In this document: piece by piece, positions 32,910-64,000 of the stretch
How positions within the stretch are numbered: position 1 is the first letter of the stretch
Layout: the number at the start of each line of letters is the position of its first letter
Assembly: GCA_020634155.1 (NCBI GenBank)
Contig: JACKCI010000001.1
Location: 907,768-971,767, forward strand
Direction: 5' to 3'
Origin: Anaerolineales bacterium
GTDB taxonomy: Bacteria; Chloroflexota; Anaerolineae; Aggregatilineales; J027
DNA length: 64,000 bases
Translations under genes and position numbers: made by a program
The notes under the pieces: generated by a model
What the model was told of the DNA's origin: nothing
Databases searched by the model: none
The model's input: the letters and a program-made list of their open reading frames with translations, nothing else

Positions 32910-32981
32910 TGCGGGATAGTTTAATCGGCAGAACAGCGGACTCTGGATCCGTCAGTCCTGGTTCGAGCCCAGGTCCCGCAG
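32910..32981 (+). tRNA. tRNA-Gln (anticodon CTG)
   Basis: Manual cloverleaf: acceptor TGCGGGA/TCCCGCA (U1:A72 as in bacterial tRNA-Gln); D-stem GTTT/GAAC; anticodon stem GCGGA/TCCGT with loop CTCTGGA (anticodon CTG at 32943-32945); T-stem CCTGG/CCAGG with TTCGAGC loop; discriminator G; CCA not encoded. Confidence 0.85.
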
Positions 32982-45906: not shown

Positions 45907-46938
45907 ATGAAAAAACTCTTTTTTATCTGTGCGCCAACTGATTACCCTTGGACTCGTAGCCTTGCCCATCAATTCTTCAGCATGGGATACCGCGTATACC
46001 TTGAACCACCCGACGAAGCTGATGACGAAAAAGTCCGTGAGCGTACCGCCCGCGCCCTATATAATGCTGAAATCATGATCGCTATTGTCTCCAAAGAAAG
46101 CGCCATTGGCAGTTCTGCTGAGGCATTTGAAGCATGGTGGCGGCCTTTTGTTGATTCGGGACGGCAGGTGATTGCTTGCATCACACCCGACTCACCCGCA
46201 GGCGCTGAAAACTGGATTCCTTACGACCTGATTCGCCGTCCACATGTGGATTTTCGGCGGGCAGGTGGAGCGGCGCGTTTAGCTGAACTGGTCAATAAAG
46301 ATGGCTCCACCACACAAGCACGCCCAGCACACACCAATCATGAGGATGATTACGAAGCCCAGTTTGAACCAGAGCCAGTCGCCGCTTATCCAACCCAACC
46401 CGTCACCCCTGTAAAAGATGAACCCGAGTCAGCATCAAAAACATCCATTATTCGTACTCTGATTGGCTTGGTGGTAGGGTTCATTATGGTATTGGTAATT
46501 TGGCAGGTGGCCCTACAGAGCGACAACGGTGATGCTCTCATTTGGGTAGGCGGATTAGCTATTATGGTGGTCGTAGTTTATTTGATTGGGCGGTGGCGTC
46601 CGCAATCTCGCAGCCAAGCAGCGAAAAAGCTGGTGGGCTATCTAGAGGTTATTTCGAGCGATGATGCCAAGACAAAAGGACGTGTTTATGGCCTCATGAA
46701 CACCTTACACATTGGCTCTGGACGGCGTGCCCAAATCCGCCTTAAGGTTGAGGGAATCGAAAAACAACACTGCACCATCTTTTATGATGGCAAAGCCTAC
46801 TACCTTGAAAACACCAGTGATAGCCGCACGATATTGTATGATCGGCAGCTAGACAGTGGTGAAGTGGTTGTATTGCAGCACGGTGATTTAATTACCGTTG
46901 GGCAAGCCGTAGTCTTGCAGTTCCGTACCCAGCTTTAG
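45907..46938 (+). CDS. TIR-like domain, 2 TM helices, C-terminal FHA domain signalling protein
   Basis: 343 aa. Residues 1-130 show the TIR_2-like pattern (KLFFICAPTDYPW...EIMIAIVSKESAIGSSAEAFEAWW). An acidic/Pro linker follows, then two TM helices (IIRTLIGLVVGFIMVLVIWQV and ALIWVGGLAIMVVVVYLIG). The C-terminus is an FHA fold (GSGRRAQIRL...HCTIFYDGKAYYLENTSDSRTILYDRQL...GDLITVGQ). Confidence 0.6.
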   Translation: MKKLFFICAPTDYPWTRSLAHQFFSMGYRVYLEPPDEADDEKVRERTARALYNAEIMIAIVSKESAIGSSAEAFEAWWRPFVDSGRQVIACITPDSPAGAENWIPYDLIRRPHVDFRRAGGAARLAELVNKDGSTTQARPAHTNHEDDYEAQFEPEPVAAYPTQPVTPVKDEPESASKTSIIRTLIGLVVGFIMVLVIWQVALQSDNGDALIWVGGLAIMVVVVYLIGRWRPQSRSQAAKKLVGYLEVISSDDAKTKGRVYGLMNTLHIGSGRRAQIRLKVEGIEKQHCTIFYDGKAYYLENTSDSRTILYDRQLDSGEVVVLQHGDLITVGQAVVLQFRTQL

Positions 46939-47356: not shown

Positions 47357-47793
47357 GAGGCTATGATGGTGGCAAGCACATCAAAGGTCGCAAGCGCCAT
47401 TTGGTGGTCGATACGGAAGGGTTTGTGTTGCGAGCTTTCGTAACTGAGGCTAACTACCACGATGGTACTGTCGGTACGTGGCTCTTAGATGACTTGAGTA
47501 ATCGCTTTCCGCGTTTAGAAAAGTTATGGGCCGATGGCTCTTATCGTGGCACGTTTGTTGACCATGCTGCTGAACGTGGCATCACGGTTGAGATTACGAC
47601 CCGCTTGAGTGACCAACCCGGCTTTCAAGTCATTGCCCATCGTTGGGTGGTAGAACGCACCTTCGCATGGCTCAATACCTACCGTCGTCTCAGCAAAGAC
47701 TACGAGTATTGGGTCTACGCATCCGATGCCACTATCTACGCCTGTATGAGCCATCTTATGCTTCGCCGTTTGGCTCGTTTGGCTCCCACCTGA
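47350..47793 (+). CDS. IS5-family transposase OrfB (DDE catalytic part), expressed as OrfAB fusion by -1 frameshift
   Basis: The -1 frame relative to OrfA is open from about 47350 (…GVRGYDGGKHIKGRKRHLVVDTEGF…) through the DDE region (…HDGT…WADGSYRG…ERTFAWLNTYRRLSKDYE); the slippery run A5G6 lies at 47343-47353. Confidence 0.75.
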   Translation, partial: GVRGYDGGKHIKGRKRHLVVDTEGFVLRAFVTEANYHDGTVGTWLLDDLSNRFPRLEKLWADGSYRGTFVDHAAERGITVEITTRLSDQPGFQVIAHRWVVERTFAWLNTYRRLSKDYEYWVYASDATIYACMSHLMLRRLARLAPT

Positions 47794-48136
47794 CCTTTTC
47801 AAACGGCCTCTGAATATCAGGCGAGCTAGACTTAGTGGCGGGGGTAGCAGCAGTGCTATCGCCCTTGGCGCTGGTATCGGTGGTCTCGCTCTTAGCGCTG
47901 GTGTCCGTGGCATCACCGCCTTTGGTGGTGCTAGTCACACCCGCGCTGTTCTTGCCCCGGCTGTCGGTCACGTACCAACCAGACCCTTTGAACACCACGC
48001 CAGCAGGTTGAATGACTCGAAAAACCGTCCCCTCTGTCTCACACACGGCACAGGTCGTTAGGGGATCATCATTAAAACTCTGCTTGACCTCAAAGGAATT
48101 ATCACATGCACGACATTGATAGGCATAAACTGGCAT
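47756..48136 (-). CDS. FmdB-family zinc-ribbon protein with IS-altered C-terminus
   Basis: N-terminal MPVYAYQCRACDNSFEV...CAVCETEGTVFRVI zinc ribbon; low-complexity Thr/Ser/Asp tail; the last 17 codons (RPFEKVRWEPNEPNGEA) are encoded by the IS right end. Confidence 0.6.
   Translation of the reverse strand: MPVYAYQCRACDNSFEVKQSFNDDPLTTCAVCETEGTVFRVIQPAGVVFKGSGWYVTDSRGKNSAGVTSTTKGGDATDTSAKSETTDTSAKGDSTAATPATKSSSPDIQRPFEKVRWEPNEPNGEA
47795..47811 (-). repeat. IS right terminal inverted repeat (rc AGAGGCCGTTTGAAAAG)
   Basis: Reverse complement equals the left IR with one T/C mismatch. Confidence 0.75.
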
Positions 48137-48241: not shown

Positions 48242-51200
48242 TCATCCACCACCGGGGCGGAAGAAGCTCGGTTGCTCCTCAGCAGGTTGTTGACTACGGC
48301 AGATTTGCCAACTTTCACCCTGCTTAACCACATGCAGAGACGGATAGCCTGACGCGACCACTTCGCTTTGGGTTTCGGTACCGGGTTTGAAAACCATCAC
48401 CCCACCCCAATTAATTGTGCCTGAGTTACCTGCCAACTCGACGCTAATCTCTAGCTCGCGGAAATCCGCACCAAGATAGGGCTGGGCAACAAGGTTTTGG
48501 AAAGCTACAGCATCAATCGGGTAATCGGCTTGGGTTTTGTCTTCCGCACAGAATAACGCATTGTACAAATCAAAGTTGCCCGTTGTCAGAGCCTGCCAAT
48601 AGGCATAGCCTACTTCACGCACAACCCGCACATCAGTGGCATCCGTTTCAGCCGTAGACCCAATCTCGGTTCCATCATCCACATAGAGGGGGTCAGGAAT
48701 AGGGGCCAATCCACCACTAATACCCAAAGGCGGGAAAATGATAATGCGTGAGGTTTGCGGATCAGCCACATACACCTGCCCATCTTTTCCAAAAGCGATA
48801 CCACCGACAGTCTCCATACCTTGCGGGAAGCCATCCGGTGGCACCAGAGGTGTATTAAAGGACAAAACCGCCCCCCCCCGCAGGTCATAGGCCACTACTC
48901 GCGGGCCATTGTTACTTTCACTGGCATCCATATCTGATACCAATATCAATGTGCCATCTGGTGAGATAGACAGATAAGGACGATGCACAGAGTTCCGCGC
49001 ACCTGCCCACATATTGACATCCCAACTCATAACAAACGTACCATCACGGCGGAAGGCCGAGATTTTTTGATTCCACGTCTCGGCAACATAAAGCTCACCA
49101 GTAACCGGATGAATAGCCAACCCAACAGGTTCTGGCTCGGCTTGTAGGCCATTGCCTTGGGCAGTAATGTCGTATAGGTGCTGATAGTTGGCATCATAGA
49201 CACGAATGCGGTGCCCGCCTGTATCAGCTACAAAGATATTGCCTTCGTTATCAACTGCCACATCACGTGGGCCATAGAGGGACATCGGGCCACCATCATC
49301 TGGTGTACCAAAGGTGCCAAAGACCCCCACCATCTCGCCCGTCGGTGAATAGATAACAATACGGTGATTCCATGTATCCGCCACATAGATATTGCCATCA
49401 TGTGGACCAACCGCAATCCCCCAAGGTTCATTGAGGATTTCAGGGCCGCCAAAGACGTCAATGGAAGTGCCATCTGGGGCGAACTTCACAATACGATGAT
49501 TGCCCGTATCAGCAGCATAGACATAACCATCCGTATCAGATGCGAGGTCACGCGGGTTGAGTAACTCGCCGACGCCAAAAGCCGATTGAGCATTAATCTC
49601 TTGATAGACAGTATCTTCAGGATCAGGAATCAAGCGTTGGGCAACGCTCTGCCCACGCAAACCAGCATCCCAGATCTGAACGGCAAAGTCCTTCCGCACA
49701 TACATATACAACTCATCGGACACTGGCCAGCGCTCAATATTGAACTGCGGGTCATTGCGGCAACTATTGGTTATACGTTGCACACAGTTGGGGTCAAGGA
49801 CTCGTTCATCAGGGTCTGTTGAACCTTCGGGCTGGATATAGCACGCGGGCGTTTCACGCTCCACACATAGGGCCGTCGCATAAGAACCATAGTCGCGCTC
49901 CCACCAAATATCCCAAAGAGACTGTCGATAATACTTGGCTGAAGGGTTGACATCATCTGGCTCAAAGATATTGGTGATTCGGTCAGCATTGAGGTTGAAA
50001 TACTCCTGCATCGGCCACCACAAGCGAATCAGATCAAAGCGGTAGTAGTCCTTGCCGAGTATCCGCTCAATCTCCGTATTCTTGCGATTGCCCGCAATGA
50101 CGACCAACGCGCCCTCAATATTGCCTATTTGATTCTTGACATCCTCCCCAGTCCCCCACAGATAACGCTTGTCCGTGAAATCCCGCAAGTACCAGAGCAT
50201 GGGCCAACTGGAGTCATCATCATAGGCGACATGGATGTTCATGCCTTCGGGACTATGGTCAGCAAAATACATTAAGTCAGCCACCACATCCTTAACGGCG
50301 GGGCCAGCATGGGCATACACACCAAATTCGGTAGGATAGTCATAGTTAATGTAGGTAAATAGCCACGCTGCCCGCACCGTCAACATCGCCAGCAGTAAAG
50401 CAAACGCCCCTATGAACAAACGCCGCGCTTGGTCAAAACCGACATCCGCCGTTAAGCGCACACCAAAATACCCAGTGATTGCCAACGCAATAAGAGCCGA
50501 TATCCATCGCCCAGTAGCGTCAAGAGCCATCTGAGTTTGGCCTTGAAAAGGCAGATTATTACCTGTGGCATAGGGTAAGGCCAGTTGCGATAGGGCCACC
50601 AGAAACACAGGAACCACAAACAGCAGCAGTATCCACCCACTGCGTTTAAGCGCATCCCAGCGAATGCGCTCCACTACGCTCCCGATATACCAGCCACCAG
50701 CCAAGGTTAGCGGTAAGGAGAGATGGGTGGTCAACCAAGGCATTTTCTCACCAGCCATCGTCAAGGCCACTAAAATCAGAATGCCCCAGTAGCCAACTAA
50801 GGCCAAGAATGGCAAGCTACCGAGGTATTCATGATCGGTCTCGCTCATCAAGCGGTCTTGTTCAGGGTTATAGGCATAACGCGATACTCTGCCTTCACGC
50901 TGTCCCCATTCAGGCGATACCCACGCAGGACTGTCCTCACTGTCCACATTCGATTCATCTATTAGAACCTCGTCAGCTTCAATCAGAATGGGTTCATCAC
51001 CTACTACGATTTCCTCGCCCTCAGCCTGTTCACTTTGAGCAGCACGTGCTGCGGCAGCATTGAGCATAGCCTGTTGACGGCTACGGTAGCGGAAATCGAA
51101 GAAATGGGAGACTCCGGCAAAGCCCGCAAAAGCCGCCAAAATTGACGGCAAGAACTCATAGACGGGAAGTTGCACGAGTACATAATAGTATTGGGGTTGG

Positions 51201-53059
51201 CTTCCGCGCCGCACATCTTGTTGTTCGAGCCAATAGCCTAGCGACCCAATCAAGCCTGTGCCAATGCCGTTGCCATTGGTAAAAAAGGTTGTGAAAAAGA
51301 CAAGGAACAAGACGCCAAAGGCTGCCGCGGCAATCGGCCAAACTCGCCAATTCCACGCCAAACCCACCGCCGCACTCACCATCAGAAATGGAATCGCAGT
51401 GACAATCGCCGCTTGCACCGTTTCCAGCGGCAATGGTGCTTGGTCAAGGGTATAGCCTGCCCAAAATAAGGGGAAGGCCGCCAGCCAAGGAAAGACCATT
51501 GACCCCATAACAATCAATATGTCAAACGCTGGTTGGCGATTTAGCACATCCCACCAATTGGTGAGCAGCCGTGTAATCAATACACCCGTCACTGCCAGCG
51601 ATAGCACAACCCATGTGAGGAATATCGGGGCATTGTCATGTTCAAGGGTTTGGGAAACATCCTCAGCATTGGGGTCAATCGCTACAGGCCCCGTATTAGT
51701 CTCATCTGAGGGGTGGCTATGACGCTCCAAGACGAGCAAGATGCTCATAAACACAAACGCAATGACGAGCAGCGCCACAATGTCTTGCCATGTCGCCCGC
51801 TTGATAATGCCAATGAGGACAATACTAAAGACAAGGAACCCTAACGGAACAATCGTCCATTCCATAAAGATGTTCAGTTGGTTCTCAGCTAGTTTGGGTA
51901 TAAGCGCATTGGTTACCGGGTCATAAGCTTCAATGAAAATAGTGGCGGGCTTAACAATATCTAAGATGACCATACCCCATAACGCCATCACACTCCCAAC
52001 AATCGCCCCGGCAGCAACCAAGAGCATCGTTGACCGTGTGTTGTAGTAAATCGCGTTGGTGACCATGCGAACCGTGATAGGTAGCCCACCGCGCCGATTA
52101 AAAGCGATACGGATGAGGCCAAAAAACTCGACAATCGCCAACGCAATTAGCACACCATATAGTTGCAGAACGCGGTCTGGCCCTATCTCATGAGAGCCGA
52201 CATGAAAGCCTAAATCGCCAGAAATCAAACCGGAGTCTGTCTTATAGAACTCGTACCACACGCCGCCGATGGTGTATCCAAGTATCCCTACCCCAGCCAA
52301 AATAACTAGGTAGGCCAAAGGATAGAGCCACCAAGGAGGGGTCTCACGGCGTGGCGGTAACACTGCCGTAGCGTCCGCATCAACAGGCTGTCGGAAAGCT
52401 CCCCGCATAATGTCTTGTACCAAGCGCAGGAGCCAATACAGCGTCAAGAAGCTTCCGAAAATCGCCACATACATAAAGGAGACTTCTTTGGAGGCCAACA
52501 TCAACAGGAGCGCTCCGCTGAATACCGGAATCCAAATCGGGCGGCGCGGTTTCTCACCGTCTAGATATTGGAGCGTGGCATACAACATCACCATTGCAAA
52601 GAACATGGAGGGGATGTCGTGGCGAATGTAGCGGCTGTAGTACAAAATCATCGGGGAGATGAGAATGCCCACCGCTGCCAGCACCGCCCCTACCTTGCCC
52701 AACCAGCGCCGAAACAATAGGGGGAACATGACCAACGCCACCCCCAGCAACGCTGGGTAAATCCGCGCACTAAAATCGCTGGGGCCAAACAAGAAATAGA
52801 AGAATGCCGTTGCATGGAACAACAACGGCCCGTGCATCAAGGGGGTGTGGTCAAAACGCCCATATTCGTACAGTTCCCACGAATAATAGGTGTGCAAACT
52901 CTCGTCATGGCTCATCACCCGTAGGCCTAAATCCCAGAAGCGACTCAATACCGCCAAAATCAAAATGGCGGTATAGATGACAGCTTCCCAATTCAGGCTA
53001 TAGACACGGGCTAATACATGGTCGAAAGGCTGTTGACGGGTAGATGTTGTCGTTGCCAT
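48242..53059 (-). CDS. Giant integral membrane protein: N-terminal GT-C/PMT-like polytopic domain (companion family of Chlor_Arch_YYY, TIGR03663-like as I recall), 6-bladed NHL-repeat beta-propeller, then C-terminal about 150-aa domain
   Basis: 1605 aa; the N-terminal 500 aa has 12 or more TM helices with a DE-containing first loop (MSHDESLHTYYSWELYEYGRFDHTPLMHGPLLFH); more TM helices around residues 750-900; six NHL repeats ((Y/I)(V/F)AD(T)xNHRI(V/R)x(F/Y) recurring: YVYAADTGNHRIVKF, IYVADTWNHRIVIY, IFVADTGGHRIRVY, LYVAETWNQKISAF, VYVADPQTSRIIIF). Confidence 0.7.
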   Translation of the reverse strand: MATTTSTRQQPFDHVLARVYSLNWEAVIYTAILILAVLSRFWDLGLRVMSHDESLHTYYSWELYEYGRFDHTPLMHGPLLFHATAFFYFLFGPSDFSARIYPALLGVALVMFPLLFRRWLGKVGAVLAAVGILISPMILYYSRYIRHDIPSMFFAMVMLYATLQYLDGEKPRRPIWIPVFSGALLLMLASKEVSFMYVAIFGSFLTLYWLLRLVQDIMRGAFRQPVDADATAVLPPRRETPPWWLYPLAYLVILAGVGILGYTIGGVWYEFYKTDSGLISGDLGFHVGSHEIGPDRVLQLYGVLIALAIVEFFGLIRIAFNRRGGLPITVRMVTNAIYYNTRSTMLLVAAGAIVGSVMALWGMVILDIVKPATIFIEAYDPVTNALIPKLAENQLNIFMEWTIVPLGFLVFSIVLIGIIKRATWQDIVALLVIAFVFMSILLVLERHSHPSDETNTGPVAIDPNAEDVSQTLEHDNAPIFLTWVVLSLAVTGVLITRLLTNWWDVLNRQPAFDILIVMGSMVFPWLAAFPLFWAGYTLDQAPLPLETVQAAIVTAIPFLMVSAAVGLAWNWRVWPIAAAAFGVLFLVFFTTFFTNGNGIGTGLIGSLGYWLEQQDVRRGSQPQYYYVLVQLPVYEFLPSILAAFAGFAGVSHFFDFRYRSRQQAMLNAAAARAAQSEQAEGEEIVVGDEPILIEADEVLIDESNVDSEDSPAWVSPEWGQREGRVSRYAYNPEQDRLMSETDHEYLGSLPFLALVGYWGILILVALTMAGEKMPWLTTHLSLPLTLAGGWYIGSVVERIRWDALKRSGWILLLFVVPVFLVALSQLALPYATGNNLPFQGQTQMALDATGRWISALIALAITGYFGVRLTADVGFDQARRLFIGAFALLLAMLTVRAAWLFTYINYDYPTEFGVYAHAGPAVKDVVADLMYFADHSPEGMNIHVAYDDDSSWPMLWYLRDFTDKRYLWGTGEDVKNQIGNIEGALVVIAGNRKNTEIERILGKDYYRFDLIRLWWPMQEYFNLNADRITNIFEPDDVNPSAKYYRQSLWDIWWERDYGSYATALCVERETPACYIQPEGSTDPDERVLDPNCVQRITNSCRNDPQFNIERWPVSDELYMYVRKDFAVQIWDAGLRGQSVAQRLIPDPEDTVYQEINAQSAFGVGELLNPRDLASDTDGYVYAADTGNHRIVKFAPDGTSIDVFGGPEILNEPWGIAVGPHDGNIYVADTWNHRIVIYSPTGEMVGVFGTFGTPDDGGPMSLYGPRDVAVDNEGNIFVADTGGHRIRVYDANYQHLYDITAQGNGLQAEPEPVGLAIHPVTGELYVAETWNQKISAFRRDGTFVMSWDVNMWAGARNSVHRPYLSISPDGTLILVSDMDASESNNGPRVVAYDLRGGAVLSFNTPLVPPDGFPQGMETVGGIAFGKDGQVYVADPQTSRIIIFPPLGISGGLAPIPDPLYVDDGTEIGSTAETDATDVRVVREVGYAYWQALTTGNFDLYNALFCAEDKTQADYPIDAVAFQNLVAQPYLGADFRELEISVELAGNSGTINWGGVMVFKPGTETQSEVVASGYPSLHVVKQGESWQICRSQQPAEEQPSFFRPGGG

Positions 53060-53074
53060 ACATGCTCCAAAAAC

Positions 53075-53614
53075 TTAACGGTAACGCGCCTCGCGGCTGG
53101 GTTCAAGGGTAGCACCGGGCATCGGTGCTGGGCTGGCTGACCAGAGGATACTGGTAAGCTCATCGCGCTCGGTGGTTTCATTCGCCACCAACAATACGCT
53201 TTCAGCCTCTAAGGTACTATCTTGCACAACAGCGGTGCTGGTTTGCAGCGGTACATTGTGGGGCCAAGCGCCCGCCGCGTCAACCGCCGAATTGTGCAAA
53301 AAGAACGGTAACAGCACCAATAACACGGCCATGCTTCCCACCAAAATCATGGACTGAAAGTTAGTAGTAAGCAATGGGCGGCGCTTGGGGCGGGTAGCCT
53401 GTTCCAGAATCGACGGTAAAAGCGCCTTCAAACGGTCTGGGGCTGGCTCGCCAAACAGCGGCATCTCCCGCCGCAGTTCGGCCTGTGTCTGGCGAACCGC
53501 CTGATATTCACGTTGCCATGTGGCGGATTGTGCCAGATGGCGGGTAACTTTTACTCGTTGGTCAGGGGCCAATGTCCCCTCAAGATAGGCAATGAGTTGC
53601 TCCCGAATATCCAC
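53075..53614 (-). CDS. Anti-sigma factor (single-pass, small extracytoplasmic domain)
   Basis: 179 aa; N-terminal anti-sigma-like helices (MDIREQLIAYLEGTLAPDQRVKVTRHLAQSATWQREYQAV; no Zn-binding Cys/His); TM helix MILVGSMAVLLVLLPFFL; start 2 nt after the ECF sigma stop. Confidence 0.55.
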   Translation of the reverse strand: MDIREQLIAYLEGTLAPDQRVKVTRHLAQSATWQREYQAVRQTQAELRREMPLFGEPAPDRLKALLPSILEQATRPKRRPLLTTNFQSMILVGSMAVLLVLLPFFLHNSAVDAAGAWPHNVPLQTSTAVVQDSTLEAESVLLVANETTERDELTSILWSASPAPMPGATLEPSREARYR

Positions 53615-53616
53615 AG

Positions 53617-54201
53617 CTAACCAAATACCTCCTCCAACGCTAGTTTGGTTTCATCCATGACTTGTCGTAGAGATTGATGCGCCAGCCGCACCCGTGACTC
53701 GGCGGTTTTGGGTGGGATGTTAAGAATGTCCCCCATTTCTCGGTAGGTCAATCCCTGTCCATAGCGCAATGCGACAGCTTCGCGCAAGCGTGGCGAAAGC
53801 GTCTTGAGGGCTTCCCCCAACGCACGCTGGGCGTCTCGGCGGATGGTTGTCCGTTCTGGATTTTCGTCATCCGGCGCGGCAGGGTCTAGCCCATTCGCCA
53901 ATAAATCACTGAGTGCCACCATCGGCAACAGTTTGCGGCGGCGGGCATTGCGACAGCGGCTAATCGTGATGGTATATAGCCATGTACGGAATGCGCCCCG
54001 CTCTGGGTCATAGCGGGACAGGTTGCGAAACACGTACACAAAGACTTCTTGCACTACGTCTTCAGCATCTTGCTGATGCAACAACACACTATAGGCCAAA
54101 CGATAGACTTCTTTGGCATAGAGGTCATATAATGCAGTGCAGGCGCTTTGGTCGCCCATTAAACTACGCTGCAAAAGGTCAGAAAAAATTGGGTCGCTCA
54201 T
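53617..54201 (-). CDS. ECF-type RNA polymerase sigma-70 factor
   Basis: Start at internal Met (cat 54199-54201, MSDPIFSDLL), giving 194 aa; sigma-70 region 2 (YRLAYSVLLHQQDAEDVVQEVFVYVFRNLSRYDPERGAFRTWLYTI) and region 4 (LRYGQGLTYREMGDILNIPPKTAESRV). Confidence 0.8.
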   Translation of the reverse strand: MSDPIFSDLLQRSLMGDQSACTALYDLYAKEVYRLAYSVLLHQQDAEDVVQEVFVYVFRNLSRYDPERGAFRTWLYTITISRCRNARRRKLLPMVALSDLLANGLDPAAPDDENPERTTIRRDAQRALGEALKTLSPRLREAVALRYGQGLTYREMGDILNIPPKTAESRVRLAHQSLRQVMDETKLALEEVFG

Positions 54202-54226
54202 GTTAAACACTACACCCTTGCCTCGC

Positions 54227-56434
54227 CTATTGCGTAGTAACCGTCTGGACACCGTAGACATCGCTCCGAACCCACAACGTATAATGCAAATCAGGTGTTG
54301 GCTCAAAACGGGTCTGGCGGGTAAACAACCACGACCCGAAATCTGTCCAGTTCAATTCCGATAGTGACCACTGGGTATTCAATATAAAGTCCTGCCCCAC
54401 ATAATCTGCGCCCAACGCAACAGGCACTTGATCATAAGGCGTGATAACAGCAGCGGTAATGGTCTCAATACCCACACCCTCAACATAGGTTGTGTTGGGG
54501 AACTCACGCAGCAACCATGCCAACGCCCCATCGTCCGGCCCCTGCACTGTAATTGTCAGGCGGTCACGGGTGCCATTCTCAAAACGCGACATCTGCTCTA
54601 AGGTCTCAACCAGTCGGTGCGATTTTTCGAGCATCGGGGCTTGGTTCCAAAGCTCACGTGGGTCATCGCCAAAAGTATGACTCGCCTGCCACCCTAGCCC
54701 TAAGCCATAGACCATGCAATAGCCAAGTAGCCCTAGGCCCAAACCACGCCATGCGGCCCGTGTCCCCCACAGACTCCCCACTAGAAAATAGACTATCACC
54801 ATCAGCATCACCAAGAAAACCATTACCATCAGATTCAAAGGTGATTTGGCATAAGTTGAGACAAAACGGGTCAGAAGCCGAAACTCTGGAATATCAAGTT
54901 GGTAGCCGGGTAGGACATTGCCGATAATTCCGTGCTCCTCAACATCACCCGCATAAGGCAACACCATATATTGCCCGCGTTGGTCACCTGTCCCTGTAAT
55001 CTTAAGGAAATAACTACCAGCGCGGGGAAACGTGATTGGTTGCACCAAACCACGTCGCCCATCAGTATAGGTAAATGGCCCAGCGAGGAACCCATCGGGC
55101 GAATCAATCAACACAATAGGGTTAACACTGCTGTCAAGTTCTCGGATTTGAAAAACCAGCGTAGTGGGTTCGGGCACATACAACTCAAAGGTCGAAGTTG
55201 GATTGTTCAGGTCGTAGGTACCAATACGAGCGCTATTACTGAGGACAGTGGTATCTACAAAGTGGTTGTAAACCGGGCGGGTTTGGCCTTGCAGAATGCC
55301 AGAAATATTGGTGGCATTTATCGCCAAGGATGTAAGGAGTACCATCATCGTCACTGCATGGAGGGCTATCCCCCATGAGGGTACCACCCAATAGCCTGTC
55401 GATGGATTCCGCAGCATTTGAGCTGCCAGAAGCGCCGTTAAGCCCGCCGCAGGGATAACAACCCACAATGCTGCATCTGGTGTAGGATTGGCATACAAAA
55501 TGCTGACCACCAAACTCCACACGAACCAACCAACCAGCACATCTGCTAAGAAGTTGCGTTGCAGAGTGAATATCGCAATTAGCCCAAATAGTACCAGCCC
55601 AAAGTCATAGCGTAGCGCTACCCAAAAAGCATAGGCAAAGGGCGTTCCGTCAGGACGTTCAAACAGCCCTAGGAACAGCCAATAGAGGGTACTACCCGCT
55701 GACGTTAGACCCGATGGAGCCATCATAAAGCCTGTGCCGACAATTACAATCACGCCTAAAGCCGCCATCAAGCCTTCACCCCAAGGCCACTGTTTCAATA
55801 TGGCTCCAATCTTTACCGGGGGATTGGCCCGCCAGAGAGCCGTTGCTAATCCTACTATGATACCAAACAGAGTGATTGCGCCAGTAGGTTCGGTCAATAC
55901 CAAGATGACAGCGCCCGCGCAGGTGGCAGTAATGGCAAAGGCATTGCGTCCAGTCTCAGCATAGCGTCGAACAGCCCATACCATCACAAACACAATCGCC
56001 ATTGTCCACGTCACAGCCCCCATCATACGTGAGGCGGTCAACGCTACGGGGGAGATTGCCAGCAGGGTCGCCATGAGCAATGCCGATGTCTTACCCATTG
56101 ACTCACGCCATAGCAATGGCCCCAAGACCAACAGTGTTCCAACAATTGCGGTTGGGATACGGGCGTTGGTCGCACTCGGCGCAGAGATGAAAAACGTGAC
56201 TTGATTGGCAAAAGCCATCAAAGGGTTGTGTGCAACAGCCGATTCAACACCGCGCACCGATTGCAGCGCTGCTAGTGCTTCGGTCGCACTCCGTGCATCT
56301 AATGGCACATCACCCAATGAAATCACACGCATAGCAAAAGCCAATACCAATAACCCGATATAGGCTAAGGTCTCTACCCGAATACCCAGCCGAAAAGTGG
56401 GTGTTTCTTGGGCGTGTTCGTAAGCCATTTCCAT
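54227..56434 (-). CDS. Polytopic membrane protein, GT-C-like; homologous to the N-terminal domain of the 48242..53059 protein (TIGR03663-like companion family)
   Basis: 735 aa; its N-terminal 150 aa align with the giant protein (NPLMAFANQVTFFISAPSATNARIPTAIVGTLLVLGPLLWR versus HGPLLFHATAFFYFLFGPSDFSARIYPALLGVALVMFPLLFRR); about 14 TM helices; an extracytoplasmic beta-rich insert. Confidence 0.6.
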   Translation of the reverse strand: MEMAYEHAQETPTFRLGIRVETLAYIGLLVLAFAMRVISLGDVPLDARSATEALAALQSVRGVESAVAHNPLMAFANQVTFFISAPSATNARIPTAIVGTLLVLGPLLWRESMGKTSALLMATLLAISPVALTASRMMGAVTWTMAIVFVMVWAVRRYAETGRNAFAITATCAGAVILVLTEPTGAITLFGIIVGLATALWRANPPVKIGAILKQWPWGEGLMAALGVIVIVGTGFMMAPSGLTSAGSTLYWLFLGLFERPDGTPFAYAFWVALRYDFGLVLFGLIAIFTLQRNFLADVLVGWFVWSLVVSILYANPTPDAALWVVIPAAGLTALLAAQMLRNPSTGYWVVPSWGIALHAVTMMVLLTSLAINATNISGILQGQTRPVYNHFVDTTVLSNSARIGTYDLNNPTSTFELYVPEPTTLVFQIRELDSSVNPIVLIDSPDGFLAGPFTYTDGRRGLVQPITFPRAGSYFLKITGTGDQRGQYMVLPYAGDVEEHGIIGNVLPGYQLDIPEFRLLTRFVSTYAKSPLNLMVMVFLVMLMVIVYFLVGSLWGTRAAWRGLGLGLLGYCMVYGLGLGWQASHTFGDDPRELWNQAPMLEKSHRLVETLEQMSRFENGTRDRLTITVQGPDDGALAWLLREFPNTTYVEGVGIETITAAVITPYDQVPVALGADYVGQDFILNTQWSLSELNWTDFGSWLFTRQTRFEPTPDLHYTLWVRSDVYGVQTVTTQ

Positions 56435-56446
56435 GAAATTCGTCCT

Positions 56447-59400
56447 TTATTCAGGCCGGATACGATAAACAGCCACATCCCCATAATGACATACGGGGTC
56501 AAGCAGTTGGGCAAACTTACTGAGGCCGGGTGAGTCTAGACCATCGCTGCCACCATAACGCCGTATCTCGGAGACCCCCACTACGACATAATCCACCCCA
56601 TAAGGTGCGATTATTTGCTTGGCTTCGTTCCACTGATCAGCAGGCATACGATAAAACAAATCAATATCAGAAGCACGAGCATCGGCATGAATCACGGTAC
56701 TATAATCCTCACCACGCCATTGTCGCTCATGGTTATCCCAACCGAGCAAGGTCGGAATGCCTGTGTACATACTAAAACGGCCAAGTTCAGGGGTATAGGC
56801 TCCACCACTAGCCTCTACCAACACCGCATCCGATTTATACGGCTCCAAGTCAGCAAGGCACTGCATCGCCTTGAACTCATCTTCGCTAATCGGCCATGAC
56901 CGCCCAGCCCACACAAAAGTCGAGGAGCCATCGAGTGTAATGGGTGCCTCTTCACGGCACAACTCCCCTTCGCAAGCTCGCGCTTGGGGACGGCTCATCT
57001 CATACAGGAAGCGGCTAGGGATTGCATAGTAGGGATAGAGCAAAACACTAAACAAAACGATGGCCGCCAGTCCACCATAGGCGACATAGCCTACCCGCCA
57101 CTGGCGAGATGGTGGGGACACTTCACTATGGAGACGTTCAGGGCCACGCAATACCGCATAAACTGCATAGGCGGCGCTAATTGATAGCAATGACCACGCT
57201 TGATAATAGAGCTTGAACACGGTATTAATGCGGCTACTGAAGTTATCTCGCAAGTACATGAAATCTGGCATCAGGACGGCTAAGACGCCTGCCCCTATCA
57301 AAAGTAAAGCTGCACCTGTATTGGGGCTAAAGCCAACTGCTGAATCCTGCTGACGCCCCCCACGTGTAAACAGGCGCATCGCCACCACACCTGCCAATAA
57401 AAGCAATATCGCTTCGCTTCCAATAGCCGTCGTGCGCCGCATAATCACACGCCGCGCCATCGCTACCGACGATTCACCATCTAGCACGCCACCTAATAGC
57501 GATGATCGTGCAGTACAAGCCCATTCTGAGAAGCTATCGACCTGCCCCGGCTTCTCACCAAGGGCGGGGCATTGCCAGTTAATAAACACAGTAGAGATTG
57601 TTGGCACCAAGAACATCATCAATAAGCCAATCAGCACAATGCTAATGACCCCTGTCCAGTTGAGTCGGTGCCGTACTCGCCACGCTTGCCCCAGCACAAA
57701 AGGTGCAATCAAAAGGATAAAAGCGCCGAATTGCAGAAAAGCCTGCTGAGTACGGGTAGGATGAATGATATTGGGGAAAAAGCCATTGGCTTGGCTGGCA
57801 AAACTCTCTAACCATAAGAAGTAAAAGCCGTAGAACGTCAGGAAGAGGACAGCACCAAAGCGCCCAACGTGGCTCCAGTCAGTATCGTCCAAGAGCCAAT
57901 TGACCAACAACGTTGCGGGTATCGACACAAACAGCGCCAACACCATTTGCAACACAAAACGCACCAACGGCACAGTATCAAGGCCAGCAGGCAGGTTATT
58001 CGTCAAACTGAGGTCAATCCCACGCTGGCTCAGGAAAAACAAGACCACAATATATACAGGGCCGATTAGCCAGCGATTGAGGTCAGACCGCCGCCGCAAG
58101 GTGAGTGTATCAACAAACTCAGCCCATCCTGTCAGGCTACCTGTGCCGTTACGAGATAAGCGTCGCACTGCCTCTGCTGCAACCACCACCAACAGATATA
58201 CGGCATCCCACGCATTGGCAAAAATCATGCCACCGATAAAGATGCCATAGATAATCATCTCCCAATACTGGAGAGGTGTGGGGCGTAAGACCAATGCCAC
58301 GGCCAAGCCAATCACCAATACGGTGAAGGGTAAGCCAAGGACATGTGGGTGATTGTCCGACAGGATAAAACTAAACTGAGGGATTTCAGCAATTGGTTTC
58401 GGTTCAAAATGATTGCCAGACAGATCACGGTCACGCACAAGACGACTATGGGCGAACCACCACCAGTAATCCCAACCCAGTGGTTGGGGGTCATCATCCC
58501 AACTCGGAATTCCATCGTTATCCGGATCAGGCAAGGCTTGGTAATTTTCCATTAGGGGGCTATTAGGGTCAAGCCGTACAACCTCGTCGCTTTTATAAAT
58601 ATCCAGATTGCGCGTACCGTCAGCATTACGTCCCCCATCGGTATAAAAAGGGCCAGCCCGTCCATGCACATCCCAGAAGTTAAAATAATCGTCGCTGACA
58701 ATCTGATTCACAATTGGGATATTGGAGGTATAGCCACGAAATGGCAACTCAACTAATACTGTCCCCAGATGCCCACCCAGCGCCAAGAAAACCGCCGCTA
58801 ATAAGCCAATCCCTAGGCCAACTTCAATACCCCCTGTGCGCCAGCGTTGCAATGGGCCGGCAGAGCAAACAAGGTTATAGCCGACCCCGAAGGCCGTGGT
58901 CATCGTTAAGGCAAAAAGCAAAGCATCAATCAAATTGAAGGCCATACCAGTGGTGACATTGCTTAAGTCAGCCAAGCCTGCTGCCAACACATATCCAAAG
59001 TAGTAGTAACTGATGGCGTAACCCGAAAGCCAAGGGTCTTTAGGAGGAAAGGTCAACGAATTGCGAATGCCATTGATGAAGGCCATCTCCATTGGCTTCT
59101 CGGTGGAGGTCAATTCGGGATTATGAGCTTGCATATAAGCCCAAGCCACAAACGTCACGGCAAACAACAATTCCGTGACGATAATCAATGGGGACTGCTC
59201 AATCAGCCACTGGCGTAATTCCTTGAATGTTGGACGTTGCGACCAGCGTACCCAAACCCATAGGCTTGCAATCAGCACTAAGAACCACGCAAAGGCCATC
59301 GCGCCGGGGTCGTTTTGTAGCAAGCCAATACTGGCTAGGAGCCAGAAGACCGCCCCCACAAGCAGCAGCCCTGCCGCCCGTGCCATCGCATAGCCGCGAT

Positions 59401-59599
59401 CCGCCAAACCGGACAGCAACCGGAATAGCAGAGGCAACACAGCCCAACCAGCCATTGTGGTAAGCAACCACCATGAAAACACATAGCGGCCCTCGTTAGT
59501 CAACCACTCTCGCGCCAATTCAAGTGGAGAGAGTGAGAATATCGCCCCCCCAAAGCCGATTATCGGCACGACCCAAAGCAAACTTAACCATCGTCGCAT
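56447..59599 (-). CDS. Chlor_Arch_YYY (DUF2298) family integral membrane protein
   Basis: 1050 aa; hallmark YYYxGY motif in context KPMEMAFINGIRNSLTFPPKDPWLSGYAISYYYFGYVL; more than 20 TM helices; C-terminal extracytoplasmic domain of about 200 aa shared with the upstream paralog. Confidence 0.75.
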   Translation of the reverse strand: MRRWLSLLWVVPIIGFGGAIFSLSPLELAREWLTNEGRYVFSWWLLTTMAGWAVLPLLFRLLSGLADRGYAMARAAGLLLVGAVFWLLASIGLLQNDPGAMAFAWFLVLIASLWVWVRWSQRPTFKELRQWLIEQSPLIIVTELLFAVTFVAWAYMQAHNPELTSTEKPMEMAFINGIRNSLTFPPKDPWLSGYAISYYYFGYVLAAGLADLSNVTTGMAFNLIDALLFALTMTTAFGVGYNLVCSAGPLQRWRTGGIEVGLGIGLLAAVFLALGGHLGTVLVELPFRGYTSNIPIVNQIVSDDYFNFWDVHGRAGPFYTDGGRNADGTRNLDIYKSDEVVRLDPNSPLMENYQALPDPDNDGIPSWDDDPQPLGWDYWWWFAHSRLVRDRDLSGNHFEPKPIAEIPQFSFILSDNHPHVLGLPFTVLVIGLAVALVLRPTPLQYWEMIIYGIFIGGMIFANAWDAVYLLVVVAAEAVRRLSRNGTGSLTGWAEFVDTLTLRRRSDLNRWLIGPVYIVVLFFLSQRGIDLSLTNNLPAGLDTVPLVRFVLQMVLALFVSIPATLLVNWLLDDTDWSHVGRFGAVLFLTFYGFYFLWLESFASQANGFFPNIIHPTRTQQAFLQFGAFILLIAPFVLGQAWRVRHRLNWTGVISIVLIGLLMMFLVPTISTVFINWQCPALGEKPGQVDSFSEWACTARSSLLGGVLDGESSVAMARRVIMRRTTAIGSEAILLLLAGVVAMRLFTRGGRQQDSAVGFSPNTGAALLLIGAGVLAVLMPDFMYLRDNFSSRINTVFKLYYQAWSLLSISAAYAVYAVLRGPERLHSEVSPPSRQWRVGYVAYGGLAAIVLFSVLLYPYYAIPSRFLYEMSRPQARACEGELCREEAPITLDGSSTFVWAGRSWPISEDEFKAMQCLADLEPYKSDAVLVEASGGAYTPELGRFSMYTGIPTLLGWDNHERQWRGEDYSTVIHADARASDIDLFYRMPADQWNEAKQIIAPYGVDYVVVGVSEIRRYGGSDGLDSPGLSKFAQLLDPVCHYGDVAVYRIRPE

Positions 59600-59602
59600 A
59601 AG

Positions 59603-62600
59603 TTAGGGAACCTGTACTACTTGTTGTGGATAATCAACATTCGGCACCACCTGATAAATCACATCGGTACTGATGCGGTCTGGTGGGCAATCTTGCACGG
59701 TAAAGATATTGGGATGCACGCAGACCTGCTGTTCATAGGCTCGCGTCAATAGCCCCATCTCCACCATATCATCGAACTTCGCCAAGCCTGCTGACAGGTT
59801 TTGGCGGAAGACTGATGGGTCTGCGGCGGGGTCTGCCTCTTTAATATCCTCGTAAATAATACGCTCGAAGGTGCCAACAATGACATACTCGACATCGTAA
59901 TAGTCAATCATTGACCACGCCTCGGCAATATCAGGAGTGGTGTAGAAAGTACGGATATTTTGCAGACGATCATTCAACAGGCGGTCTAGCCCATCCAGAT
60001 TACGCTGCTGACTCTGATGGAAACGCCAACCAAGGATAGTTGGCAGGCCAGTTTGAATAGCAATCCGCGAACTCCATGAATATTCAGTGTGTTGGCCTTC
60101 AATAATGGTTGGTGTACCTTGCACATTATCCTCTAGCCAGTGAATCATCTGGTAATCGCCATTGAGGTTGAACCAAACACCCGGAGTCGGGCCACCACCG
60201 TCAGGGTCTTCACCATGCGGAGCCACTTGCATAAAAGCAGTGCCGTCCAGTGTCAGCGGTGTTTCAGCCTTATTGAAGCGGTCAACGAAACGACCTTGGG
60301 TGGCGGTAATGGGATAGAGCAAAGCGATACTGAGCAAAATAGCCAGCACCATCTGCCAAACCCCACTCAGGGCAGGTCGCCAGCGTGCCGCAGAACGCAA
60401 CATCCACGCCAAACTCACGCCACTGGCAATACTAAGAAGAAGCCACACTTGGATATAGAACTTGAAGACTGTGTTCTGACGCCCAATGTCGCCACGCAGC
60501 ACAAAGTATTCGACTGCCATTGATAGGCCCAAGGCCAGCCCCGCTAATATATACACCCAGCGCTCCACATGGCTTTGGTCAGGCAAGAGAAACAGAACCG
60601 CCAGCCAAATGAACATCGGCAGCGCCACCCAATACACCGGATAGTCTAGACCCAGCACAATCGTAATCAGCACCGTCGCAGGAATAAGGCCGACCACCGC
60701 CAAGAACGGCACCCCGTATGAGCGTATATCCGCAACACGATGCCGCCGCAACCAGCGGGCTGTCTGCCAAACCAGCATACTACCGATGATGAAGATAAAG
60801 ACACCATGTATGTCCAAATAGGCCCAAAGCGGAGTGCGGTCATTCTGCCATTTCAGAATCTCACCATAGGCGGTAGCAAAATAACTGCTAAAGGGCCATA
60901 TCGCCACAAAACTTATCACGCCAAAACCAAGCAGCCGTGCCACCCACGCAAGAATCGCCTCACGGTTGAAGCGATTACCCAAGAGCAACAAACCCGCAGC
61001 ATAGAGCGCAACCACCACGGCCAACAAACCAACACCCCACACCGTTGTTTCACCAATTGAGAAGTAGGGTTTGAGTTTACCTTCGCAAAGAGGGGATAAA
61101 GTTAGGGGATCAACCGTGCGGGCGTCAATCTCCGTGCAAAAGGCCGGAATCTGGCCCGCCGTGAGTTGGTTGTCATATTGGCGTGTTTCATATAAATACA
61201 ACCCACCGCGCAACATCATCCCCAAGGGCAACGCCAGCAGCAAAGGCCACAGCATCATGACATAACGTACATCAAGGAAGCGCAACAGGCGTTGATAGAG
61301 TGAAACAGGCGGCACATCTTGACGCAAGCGTCCCTGCCCGATCCATGCCGCATAGGTAAGCCCCACCACACTCAAAACCATGTAAGTGGGCCAATCCCAT
61401 GTATTGGTAGGGCGCAATAGGCCCGCGGTCATGCCACCAATCGCCAAAGCCAGCCCCGCAGCCCAAATAGGCCGTAGACGCCGCCCTGCCCCCAAAATCT
61501 CCGCTGTCAGCCACAAAATCACCAATAGAGTCAAGGGCATTGCCATCATGTGAGCATGCATATCACCATAAAGGAAGGTGAAGTAGGGCATCTCAGCAAT
61601 AGCATTATGCCCACGTCCATTATCGAGTTCCGCAATCACGCGTGTTGGTGCCCAATACCAACGGTGGGCTGGGACAGATAAAGGGCGTTCACCACTCACG
61701 ACTCGCTTAAAACCACGCGCCATTGCTGCGAACCATTCCCTCGACTGCGTAAAATATGAGACACCCGCATCGGCTTCAATTTGGGCTAGTTCGGTATCAC
61801 TCGGAAACCGCCCGTTCTCATTTTGAAAGACCCAAATTGCGGTATCAATGTTCGATTGGCGCAAAACGGAAGAGGGTGTGTAATCGCCCGCTTGGGCAAT
61901 CCCATTGGCAAAAACCCGCACGGTGTCTAAATTGCCTAAAACCGCCGCCAGCAGCAAGGCAATAATCCCCGCCACATAGGGACTAGCCGAAGGGCCGGGA
62001 TATTCGGTCTCACGCGCCGAAGATTGATGGGTCAAATGCCGACGCTCATTCGTCCATGCCACTAAGTTATAAGCGACACTAAAGGCTCCCATCCCTGTCA
62101 TCGAAAACAGGGTCGGCAATAACAAGTTATAGGCAAGGCTTGGCGGCACACCCAGCAGCTTGGTTGGCGCACCAACCAACACATATCCCCAATAGTAATA
62201 ATTGATATAGCCATTCGCATACCAAGGGTCGATAGGCGGGAAGATGGTACTCCGCAACACCCCATTAAAATAGGCCATATTCATAGGCTTTTCGCCACCA
62301 AAAGAGCCATGCCACAGATCAGGGTTACCCAAGCGCACCCCTAGAAAAAACAGGAACATGGCAAGGGCAATGCCTTCAATAATCAGCAAATGCCGCCACT
62401 TGGCTCGTATAAAAGCCATTAACTGCTGACGGCGTACAAAAGCGATGACACCATTGATCAATGTTAGGCCCAGCAGCAGACCAGTCAAGCCTTGTTGTGA
62501 CCATAATGGCAGGGTTAGCGTGCTGCCAAACCATGCCACCCATGCGACCAATAACCACGCCATCAGCTTACCCACCGCAAACCCTCGGTCAGGAAGGCCA

Positions 62601-64000
62601 ACAAAGATAACCTCCAGCAAAGGTAAGCACATCCACCCTGCCAGCACCATCAATCCCCACCAAATGATGACCGTCAGCACTTGGTTGCGTTCATAGAAAC
62701 GGCTAAAGAGGTCTGACCATGTACCACCATCGCGCTGGGTGGCAAGTTGTTCGTCTGTAAATTGCAGAGCAGTTTGGCTCTTGGAAGCTGTTGGAGCATC
62801 CCATTTAATGCGATTAATGGGTTCAATCACATAAGGATCAGGGGCATCGTCCGCTGACCGGATATTGACCCCATCCAGAATAGCCGCTGCTTTTTCAGGT
62901 GTATATTCGGCAGTCTTCCGCAATAGAAACACTGCTGGATGGTCATAAACATGGAAGGCTTCTTCGGCCTCTAGTTCGTTGCGCCAATCGGGTAAATCGT
63001 CAGTGGGCAGCACTTGGTCTTGCCAATGGAAGGGGCCAAACTCCGGTTCAGCTACAAAAGTTCGAACCACTTCAAAGCCCAATTCACCTGAAAACAGCGC
63101 CTCATAATAACGGTTGGTCATCGGCCAGCGGGTAGGGATACGCGACTGCGAATCATAGAAGCGGTTGCTGCCCACCACCAGATAATCCATCTGGTTGAGT
63201 TGATCAAGCAGTTGGTCACGCTTCGAGACCTCATCCGGCCAGAACATATTCATCGTGATGCCGATGTAGTAGCCTGTGTAGAGATTTACGGCGGGAATAT
63301 ATAGTGTACACATACCCGACGGCAAGTCGTCACGATAGGACATGCCGATGGGTACTGGACAAACAGGCGTCGGCAATGGGTCATCCCAAGGGCCTTCCCA
63401 TGCCACTGCTGCACCGCCAATCCCAACCCAGTCATCGGGTGCAAAGGTCAAGGTATAGCGCTCACCCGCCTCAACTGAAAACGGTTCATCTAACTCCAGC
63501 CTGACTTCAGGGCCAAACACCAAATGCCCATCATCAACCGCGTTGAAGTCCCCCGTTGCCACCGCTTCGGCTGAAAGGCCAGAGGCCCCAGTGCGTCGAT
63601 CATCCTTCAAGATAACGCGCACCGTCTCAGGTGTGGTATCGCTGAGAGCATCACTAACATGCGGTATCACAATCTGGCGAATCGCCCCAGTTGCATTGGC
63701 AACAAATTCATAATCAGATTGAACGCTACCGCTGAAATACGCAATATCGCCCGAAGTCGTGGGGAGGGGAAAGGTCAACTCTTCAATATAGGGTTCGTCT
63801 GTCTCTAGCGTGCGGTAGAACATCGTGATATGCGAAAATCCAATGCCGCTACCGTCATTGGTGGCTAGGGTGACAGGGCCACCTTCTAAAACCTCGACTT
63901 CTAGCCAATAGGAAGCAACTGAATCACCAATCTCAATCGGTGGCTCAAACAAGACTGTGTACTCGGTACCCAGCGGGCCACCACCCCCTGCATTCAAGTC
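59603..64000 (-). CDS. Chlor_Arch_YYY (DUF2298) family integral membrane protein, larger paralog with about 450-aa N-terminal extracytoplasmic domain (5' partial; continues past window end)
   Basis: At least 1464 aa. The track 'Met' is a TTG at the window edge, with an in-frame codon before it, so the true start is beyond 64000. YYY motif [39 protein letters not shown]. The C-terminal domain is homologous to that of the 56447..59599 protein (TLDG...LLGW...YVVVG/YVIVG). Confidence 0.75.
   Translation of the reverse strand, partial: [1465 protein letters not shown]

Follow-up and report, generated by a model that had tools for sequence, protein, structure and literature searches.

Within a 64,000-nucleotide (nt) stretch of an Anaerolineales (Chloroflexota) contig, hereafter the window, a minus-strand extracytoplasmic function (ECF) sigma factor gene and the gene of its anti-sigma factor stand in the middle of a row of genes for giant membrane proteins. 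Our analysis of this row and of its counterparts in related genomes indicates that the pair is probably a conserved, autoregulated ECF switch, embedded in and controlling a Chloroflexota gene cluster of the lipid-linked-sugar or GT-C type that resembles envelope glycosylation machinery. The arrangement is conserved and a matching promoter motif accompanies it, so that the pair very probably switches on the glycosylation-like machinery. An earlier reading of this DNA (the sequence-only reading) had described the ECF sigma/anti-sigma pair, the single membrane pass of the anti-sigma factor, and the co-orientation of both genes with the giant genes at distances of 2–25 nt, all of which hold. It had also proposed that the pair regulates the genes around it, an idea that is now supported by family synteny and motif conservation, with the corrections given below. 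The three elements on which the argument turns are the following.

53617..54201, minus strand: ECF (group IV) sigma-70 family sigma factor, 194 amino acids (aa), from ATG 54201 to the stop at 53617
53075..53614, minus strand: single-pass class I anti-sigma factor, 179 aa, from GTG 53614 to the stop at 53075
54208..54238, minus strand: candidate sigma-dependent internal promoter, P3, in the same register as the family motif

Conserved gene order and promoter motif

We compared about 90 related genomes and mapped six proteins of the window by tblastn onto 80 loci of Anaerolineae and Aggregatilineales; gene identities, synteny, and the conservation and placement of the motif described below were observed directly in these sequences. 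The order DUF2298, DUF2298, Agl23-like, sigma, anti-sigma, Agl23-like/NHL is kept in most of the 80 loci. The neighbor most tightly linked to the sigma pair is the Agl23-like/NHL gene, which follows sigma at a distance below 2 kb in 64 of the 65 loci with enough downstream sequence, and the triad of sigma gene, anti-sigma-sized open reading frame (ORF), and Agl23-like/NHL gene is likewise found together in 64/65. The gene directly preceding sigma encodes an ortholog of the small Agl23-like protein (735 aa in the window) in 42 of 62 loci. About 20 loci have the triad by itself, with a true intergenic region in front and often an unrelated, divergent gene alongside. This synteny supports a functional tie between the sigma pair and the neighboring giant genes.

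The DNA upstream of sigma in the stand-alone loci carries a bipartite motif, xxTGAGGAA(A/T)-N13/14-GTGTA(T). A position matrix was trained solely on the 20 loci with a true intergenic region before sigma and was tested on 57 other independent loci, 49 of which have the family motif TGAGGAAT-N13/14-GTGTA at 15 bits or more within −110 to −10 of sigma (background, 0.0008 hits per 100 nt). Among the 79 loci whose upstream sequence is long enough, 78 have the motif with the sigma gene, whether what lies upstream is coding or is an unrelated, divergent gene. Where sigma is embedded, the final codons of the preceding gene double as the −35 box, typically as ACT GAG GAA TAG, and the upstream stop codon falls within the predicted promoter in 38 of 46 cases. 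GTGTA mostly lies 8–12 nt before the sigma start codon in these loci (9 nt in the window), and because of this short distance a transcript from the sigma-proximal site would be leaderless or nearly so, with no Shine-Dalgarno sequence.

Family-wide, these data strongly support a predicted internal promoter just upstream of sigma. The sequence-only reading had anticipated such a promoter, which would drive sigma, anti-sigma, and the 4.8-kb gene downstream, but it had looked for an AAC-N16-CGT element, in place of which we found TGAGGAAT-N13/14-GTGTA. Of the envelope-signal control that it proposed, the tie to the giant genes is borne out by the triad and by motif copies before DUF2298 genes, whereas envelope stress as the signal finds no support.

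Besides the sigma sites, the matrix returned 14 hits in the 57 loci; the junction of DUF2298-A and DUF2298-B accounts for 10, and another 2, in L063 and L067, precede the first DUF2298 gene by about 62 nt. In L054, a 22.7-bit site lies 116 nt upstream of a DUF2298 gene that is inverted and divergently placed. Almost all strong hits away from sigma precede cluster genes, including DUF2298 genes in several clades, which is how sites should be distributed if an ECF sigma factor is autoregulated and has its own cluster as its regulon. Seven stand-alone loci (L022, L033, L036, L038, L041, L046, and L050) hold a second copy of the motif, CTTGAGGAAT-13-GTGTAT, at about +591 from the sigma start, where it overlaps the last sigma codons about 40 nt before the anti-sigma start; this suggests a separate sigma-dependent promoter for the anti-sigma and Agl23-like/NHL genes in those seven loci.

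We propose a model in which the membrane anti-sigma factor would hold the sigma factor through its cytoplasmic anti-sigma domain (one that has no zinc site in the window lineage) until it is inactivated in response to an extracytoplasmic cue, most likely through regulated proteolysis; cue and release mechanism alike are modeled on known single-pass anti-sigma factors of class I. Once freed, the sigma factor would take RNA polymerase to (T)GAGGAAT-N13/14-GTGTA promoters. Since the site upstream of sigma lies across the end of the preceding gene and the gap, induction would raise a near-leaderless sub-operon transcript for sigma, anti-sigma, and the 1605-aa Agl23-like/NHL protein, and in various clades further promoter copies would act before DUF2298 genes or before the gene that heads the cluster. 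Recognition of the promoter by the sigma factor, the signal that induces the switch, and what the giant proteins do biochemically are inferences in this model.

The sigma factor and its anti-sigma partner

The sigma factor consists of regions 2 and 4 (Sigma70_r2, 4.9e-20, aa 24–90; Sigma70_r4_2, 1.8e-11, aa 126–174), with neither region 1.1 nor region 3 nor any further domain in its 194 aa, which is the ECF architecture, and it matches the ECF superfamily model TIGR02937 with 104.8 bits (cut-off 42.9). NCBIfam equivalogs of named ECF sigma factors (SigW, SigE/RpoE, SigK, SigM, SigY, and others) scored about 100 bits at best against cut-offs of 190–265 bits; all of these scores are far under the cut-offs, and the protein is therefore not an ortholog of any named sigma factor. 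Of the solved relatives, SigE of M. tuberculosis (1.5e-20) and SigW of B. subtilis (4.3e-19) are closest, with SigH and SigK also among the best matches. Homologs at 60–79% identity occur throughout Anaerolineae, Aggregatilineales, and Thermoflexus. An exact-sequence look-up of the window sigma returned no record, and the main text of Casas-Pastor 2021 held no relevant mention of an ECF group for it. A GTG at 54210 is an alternative start codon. A longer ORF from TTG 54306, also listed, was rejected, as it runs into the upstream gene and the homolog N-termini in the alignment speak against it.

In or just after the sigma-4 recognition helix, the protein carries Q176, V181, and D183 (window 53653–53676, minus strand), which are typical of the window lineage; most other orthologs have E, A, and S at 176, 181, and 183. 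The same lineage is the one with a variant −35 box, described below. The replacement of E by Q176 in region 4 was considered as the cause of that variant but does not account for it cleanly, since Q176 also occurs in L069 and L078 together with a canonical box.

The anti-sigma ORF begins 2 nt after the sigma stop, directly adjacent to its presumed cognate partner, and the same arrangement is seen in 74 related loci, each with an orthologous ORF of 150–230 aa directly 3′ of sigma. Its product comprises an N-terminal anti-sigma domain (aa 1 to about 75), a transmembrane (TM) helix (aa 88–106), and an extracytoplasmic tail of 73 aa. A narrow pass of the zf-HC2 model (23.9 bits, cut-off 22.2), together with the matches of a profile of the orthologs (alignment A2) to ChrR (1e-5), RslA (7.9e-4), DdvA (2e-3), and also RsiW, identifies the domain as a class I anti-sigma domain. 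A PDB sequence search with the anti-sigma protein alone gave no match. The topology was judged from hydropathy alone: the lone hydrophobic segment, at aa 88–106, has a Kyte-Doolittle mean of 2.5 (next best 0.83) and is flanked by RPKRRP on its N-terminal side, in keeping with a single TM helix and a cytoplasmic N terminus.

The tail (aa 107–179; window 53075–53296, minus strand) is 44% Ala/Ser/Thr/Pro. Two features are shared with its orthologs (alignment A2): a T-x-T-P stretch that follows the TM helix, and SP(A/V)P(M)P at the C terminus. As a lead only, the tail resembles O-glycosylated regions of other bacteria.

The site in the window and alternative readings

In the window, P3 consists of a −35 box, ACTACGCAAT (54238–54229), a 13-nt spacer, and a −10 box, GTGTAGTG (54215–54208). 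The −35 box takes in the three final codons of the upstream 735-aa gene and the T that opens its TAG stop, and GTGTA (54215–54211; read GTGTAG) lies inside the 25-nt gap, 9 nt before ATG 54201. The sequence-only reading had held this gap to be too short for a promoter, which would have to lie inside the 3′ end of 54227..56434. The −35 box does lie there, but the −10 box sits in the gap; the site is therefore not buried in the gene, and the gap is not too short.

Of the putative autoregulatory promoter present in 49/57 family loci, the window keeps the −10 box and the spacing, in a site of 9.0 bits that matches the pattern of its clade. The deviation of its −35 box is common to the nearest relatives (TACGCAGT or TACGCAAT), and the next clade has GAGGGAT. 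The clade form, CTNNGNANT-N13-GTGTA, has 12 matches in five genomes of the window lineage, all on the coding strand; when the match in the window and one from outside the lineage, in genome L089, are included, the total is 13, against 0.12 expected in 507 kb of strand-bases. The window holds exactly one match (0.12 expected), and this is the sigma site. Three positions are conserved in the lineage: before the LPG_synthase_TM gene, within the end of an approximately 880-aa gene (42–50 nt before the first DUF2298 gene), and before sigma. The two predicted sites other than the sigma site fall beyond the window end. We conclude with moderate confidence that the window −35 box is a lineage-specific variant rather than a product of decay, and P3 probably functions as a promoter, though it may be weaker or have an altered specificity.

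The two lineage sites away from sigma can be seen in L081, at 9930–9960 (approximately 880-aa gene) and 4258–4288 (LPG_synthase_TM), and lie at the same places in L083, L085, L086, and L087. The site before the LPG_synthase_TM gene is followed by a conserved TATAATGGCGCGTCG, which looks like a housekeeping −10 element. A second exact TACGCAGT-N13-GTGTA in L003 (9637–9667, minus strand), on the opposite strand inside the small Agl23-like gene, is probably a chance match despite the low expectation, because it is not conserved in relatives. Hits of the clade matrix at 676 (minus strand, within the coding sequence of a PLP-enzyme-like gene) and at 10197 (minus strand, within an ORF) were likewise judged to be chance.

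Several points weigh against the proposed switch and its promoter in this genome. The −10 box and the spacing of P3 are intact, yet the −35 core reads ACGCAAT where the family has GAGGAAT, so that three of seven positions differ. Owing to this deviating box, the site scores 9.0 bits on the family matrix, under the shuffle maximum of 12–18 bits, and P3 would not be called on this genome alone; given the departure from the consensus, we infer the activity of the window site. The search upstream of sigma accordingly had a divided outcome: a site is present at the family register, but across the 64-kb window the family matrix returned nothing above shuffle level (best 13.8 bits; shuffle maxima 12.2–17.8), and TGAGGAA-N14-GTGTA with up to two mismatches gave 4 matches in the window against 3.5 expected, none of them near sigma. 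The clade-specific matrix is small (shuffle maxima 13–17 bits), and the case for a variant therefore rests on positional conservation in five related genomes, two of them very close. Among the sigma-4 residues compared, no change cleanly accounts for an altered −35 specificity. The whole reading draws on comparison, and the user of the motif could be another sigma factor or a DNA-binding regulator. Finally, the biochemical role of the DUF2298 proteins is putative, a literature search on DUF2298, TIGR03662/3, the YYY domain, and the bacterial proteins having found no relevant or experimental paper.

The alternative that survives best, and which we nevertheless consider unlikely, is that the pair is real but P3 in this genome is a decayed relic, sigma, anti-sigma, and the 4.8-kb gene being expressed only by read-through from promoters that lie further up the long operon, beyond the window. 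The −35 box contributes 0.6 bits, compared with 8–16 bits for canonical sites, and the score of the whole site lies within shuffle noise. All gaps in the row are 25 nt or less and terminator-like sites are not above chance, which fits one long transcript; between 47000 and 56500, neither sigma-70-type promoters nor intrinsic terminators exceeded shuffles. In close relatives, a better site (GCTACGGAAT-13-GTGTAT) precedes the first DUF2298 gene, and a further one lies where the cluster begins. A relic, however, would not readily explain why GTGTA and its 13-nt register are retained in non-coding DNA in every member of the lineage while the flanking bases vary, nor why the deviating −35 box is itself conserved, with deviations common to the two other lineage sites.

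A further idea, which we regard as rather improbable, extends the proposed switch: the module might be a sensor of glycosylation homeostasis that acts through the anti-sigma tail, possibly with co-evolved promoter specificity in the window lineage. It is suggested by the Ala/Ser/Thr/Pro-rich tail with its T-x-T-P and SP(A/V)P(M)P motifs. The tail would be a substrate or binding partner of the PMT/Agl23-like GT-C proteins, a candidate being the NHL propeller of the 1605-aa protein; when unmodified or unbound it would be cleaved, sigma would be released, and more of the tail-modifying machinery would be made. In the window lineage, from which the zinc site has been lost, a new −35 preference (TACGNAAT versus TGAGGAAT) may have co-evolved at all three cluster promoters.

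That zinc site bears on another alternative. The HxxxCxxC motif of the zinc-binding (ZAS) anti-sigma subfamily is intact in 59 of 74 orthologous anti-sigma ORFs, but is degenerate in the window protein, which therefore falls outside the subfamily: it reads RHLAQSATW (HxxxSxxW), with H26 kept and the cysteines replaced by S30 and W33, and both cysteines are also absent in the closest relatives (L001 and L003–L012). With its zinc-binding cysteines gone, and with every NCBIfam anti-sigma model scoring under its cut-off, the 179-aa protein of this lineage might no longer be an anti-sigma factor, leaving sigma constitutively active or otherwise controlled. We find this very unlikely. Outside the zinc motif, the anti-sigma domain can be aligned well with that of Cys-bearing orthologs, as can the TM helix and tail motifs; the zf-HC2 cut-off is still passed, the 2-nt coupling to sigma is retained, and functional zinc-free class I anti-sigma domains exist, that of E. 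coli RseA being an example.

It is highly improbable that the bipartite motif is the target of another factor (an ECF paralog, or the AsnC-type or response regulator at the cluster head) and that the pair regulates genes elsewhere: although the link between this sigma factor and the motif rests on sequence placement, AsnC-family and response-regulator genes are conserved upstream of the cluster in relatives, and GTGTA is not the commonest ECF −10 element, the motif tracks the sigma gene across the loci regardless of the upstream neighbor, and its distance to start codons is variable, as it is for promoters. Its fixed orientation, 13/14-nt spacing, and GGAAT-type −35 box are moreover typical of autoregulated ECF promoters (PMC7826278).

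The giant neighbors, related systems, and flanking DNA

The row that the ECF switch would control runs unbroken on the minus strand from 48242 to the window end. The stop of the 735-aa gene at 54227 is followed after 25 nt by sigma, the sigma stop after 2 nt by anti-sigma, and the anti-sigma stop after 15 nt by ATG 53059 of the 1605-aa gene. Apart from the sigma pair, the row comprises the following genes.

48242..53059, minus strand: Agl23-like/PMT_2/NHL membrane protein, 1605 aa (TIGR03663, 238 bits, cut-off 126; PMT_2, 34.8 bits; NHL, 1.1e-33)
54227..56434, minus strand: distantly Agl23/PMT_2-like membrane protein, 735 aa (TIGR03663, 66.6 bits, and PMT_2, 19.7 bits, both below cut-off)
56447..59599, minus strand: DUF2298/Chlor_Arch_YYY membrane protein, 1050 aa (PF10060, 2.3e-83; TIGR03662, 366.8 bits, cut-off 300)
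59603..63997+ (to the window end at 64000), minus strand: DUF2298/Chlor_Arch_YYY protein, C-terminal 1464 aa (PF10060, 1.6e-97; TIGR03662, 494.2 bits)

At its N terminus the 1605-aa protein has an Agl23-like (TIGR03663)/PMT_2 domain; it contains many TM segments and, toward its C terminus (about aa 1156–1350), an NHL beta-propeller, the PDB matches of which include PknD. It passes the TIGR03663 cut-off; the 735-aa protein misses it and is therefore classed as a distant Agl23 relative. Both upstream giants pass the TIGR03662/DUF2298 cut-off, and a PDB sequence search with the 1050-aa protein found no solved relative. The first DUF2298 gene is cut by the window edge, and its full product has about 2370 aa (orthologs 2337–2410 aa, the closest 91% identical). 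The giant genes as listed in the sequence-only reading hence held as far as the window goes, with only the C-terminal part of the first, and in relatives the row extends further: close relatives (91%, 83%, and 63% identity) have four more genes of the same strand at its upstream end, which makes ten in all (L081 4347–26731). The four extra genes encode LPG_synthase_TM, a GT4 glycosyltransferase, a methyltransferase, and an uncharacterized protein of about 880 aa, and genes for an AsnC-type regulator, a response regulator, and PMT_2-like proteins often precede the LPG_synthase_TM end of the cluster in relatives.

Comparison with known class I pairs (M. tuberculosis SigE, SigK-RskA, and SigL-RslA, B. 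subtilis SigW-RsiW, and R. sphaeroides RpoE-ChrR) shows that the window pair has the same sigma factor of about 190 aa with sigma-2 and sigma-4, the same adjacent, translationally coupled anti-sigma factor with an N-terminal anti-sigma domain and, as in RsiW, RskA, and RslA, one TM helix; its family also has a predicted bipartite promoter with a GGAA-type −35 before the sigma factor's own gene. It differs from these pairs in its GTGTA −10 and short spacing, in a predicted promoter that overlaps the preceding stop codon, in the lack of a zinc site in the window lineage, and in its position, since it stands midway along an operon of about 26 kb and not at the head.

The giant proteins, for their part, resemble Agl23 of Haloarcula hispanica and the TIGR03662-TIGR03663 pair of Chloroflexi and Archaea, in that the 1605-aa protein passes TIGR03663 and both DUF2298 proteins pass TIGR03662. 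Unlike Agl23, the bacterial proteins are several times larger and have extra domains, including the NHL propeller, and their genes are clustered in relatives with GT4, LPG_synthase_TM, and methyltransferase genes. Archaea lack sigma factors, and accordingly we know of no ECF control of archaeal Agl23-type genes. In a passage of PMC11182771 that cites Lu et al. 2020, Agl23 of H. hispanica is given as a candidate hexose-P-dolichol (hexose-phosphodolichol) flippase, and the purified protein is said to translocate lipid-linked oligosaccharide. Because the neighbors of the sigma pair match the DUF2298, Agl23, and PMT_2 families, and in view of this reported role of Agl23, "glycosylation-like machinery" is a fair label for them.

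A sigma gene inside an operon has a precedent in P. aeruginosa SigX, which belongs to an operon of seven genes, is not its first gene, and has envelope-protein neighbors (PMC7826278, ECF102 text). The window sigma is likewise not the first gene of its operon and has envelope-protein neighbors; it differs from SigX in protein family and regulon, and its predicted internal promoter is conserved and defined in sequence over dozens of genomes.

The combination of ECF sigma factor, class I anti-sigma factor, and autoregulatory promoter is of a kind already well known. Three features appear to be undescribed in the literature searched: the invariant link to DUF2298/Agl23-like giants in Chloroflexota, the defined promoter, and its stop-codon-spanning position inside an operon. 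A large-scale ECF promoter search looked solely upstream of whole operons, delimited by gaps under 50 bp (PMC7826278), and would therefore overlook a conserved site lying across a stop codon within an operon, so that embedded promoters of this type are a blind spot of standard ECF promoter prediction. The uncharacterized DUF2298 and bacterial Agl23-like proteins are very large and occur widely in Chloroflexota, and a dedicated ECF switch would offer a regulatory handle on them; with a defined promoter, inducers can be sought and genes that belong together can be grouped.

Downstream of the operon end at 48242, a 105-nt gap separates the row from a zinc-ribbon (Zn_ribbon_8) gene at 47756–48136 (minus strand). 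The 3′ end of that gene is overlapped by a 130-aa DDE transposase fragment (DDE_Tnp_1, 1.1e-11) at 47401–47793 (plus strand), which looks like an insertion-sequence remnant at the downstream border of the operon. Further along, a 343-aa protein encoded at 45907–46938 (plus strand) joins an N-terminal TIR_2 domain (28.6 bits, cut-off 28) to a C-terminal FHA domain (4.2e-11), an unusual pairing that may be linked to signaling or defense. The sole Rfam match in the window is one tRNA gene, at 32910–32981 (plus strand).

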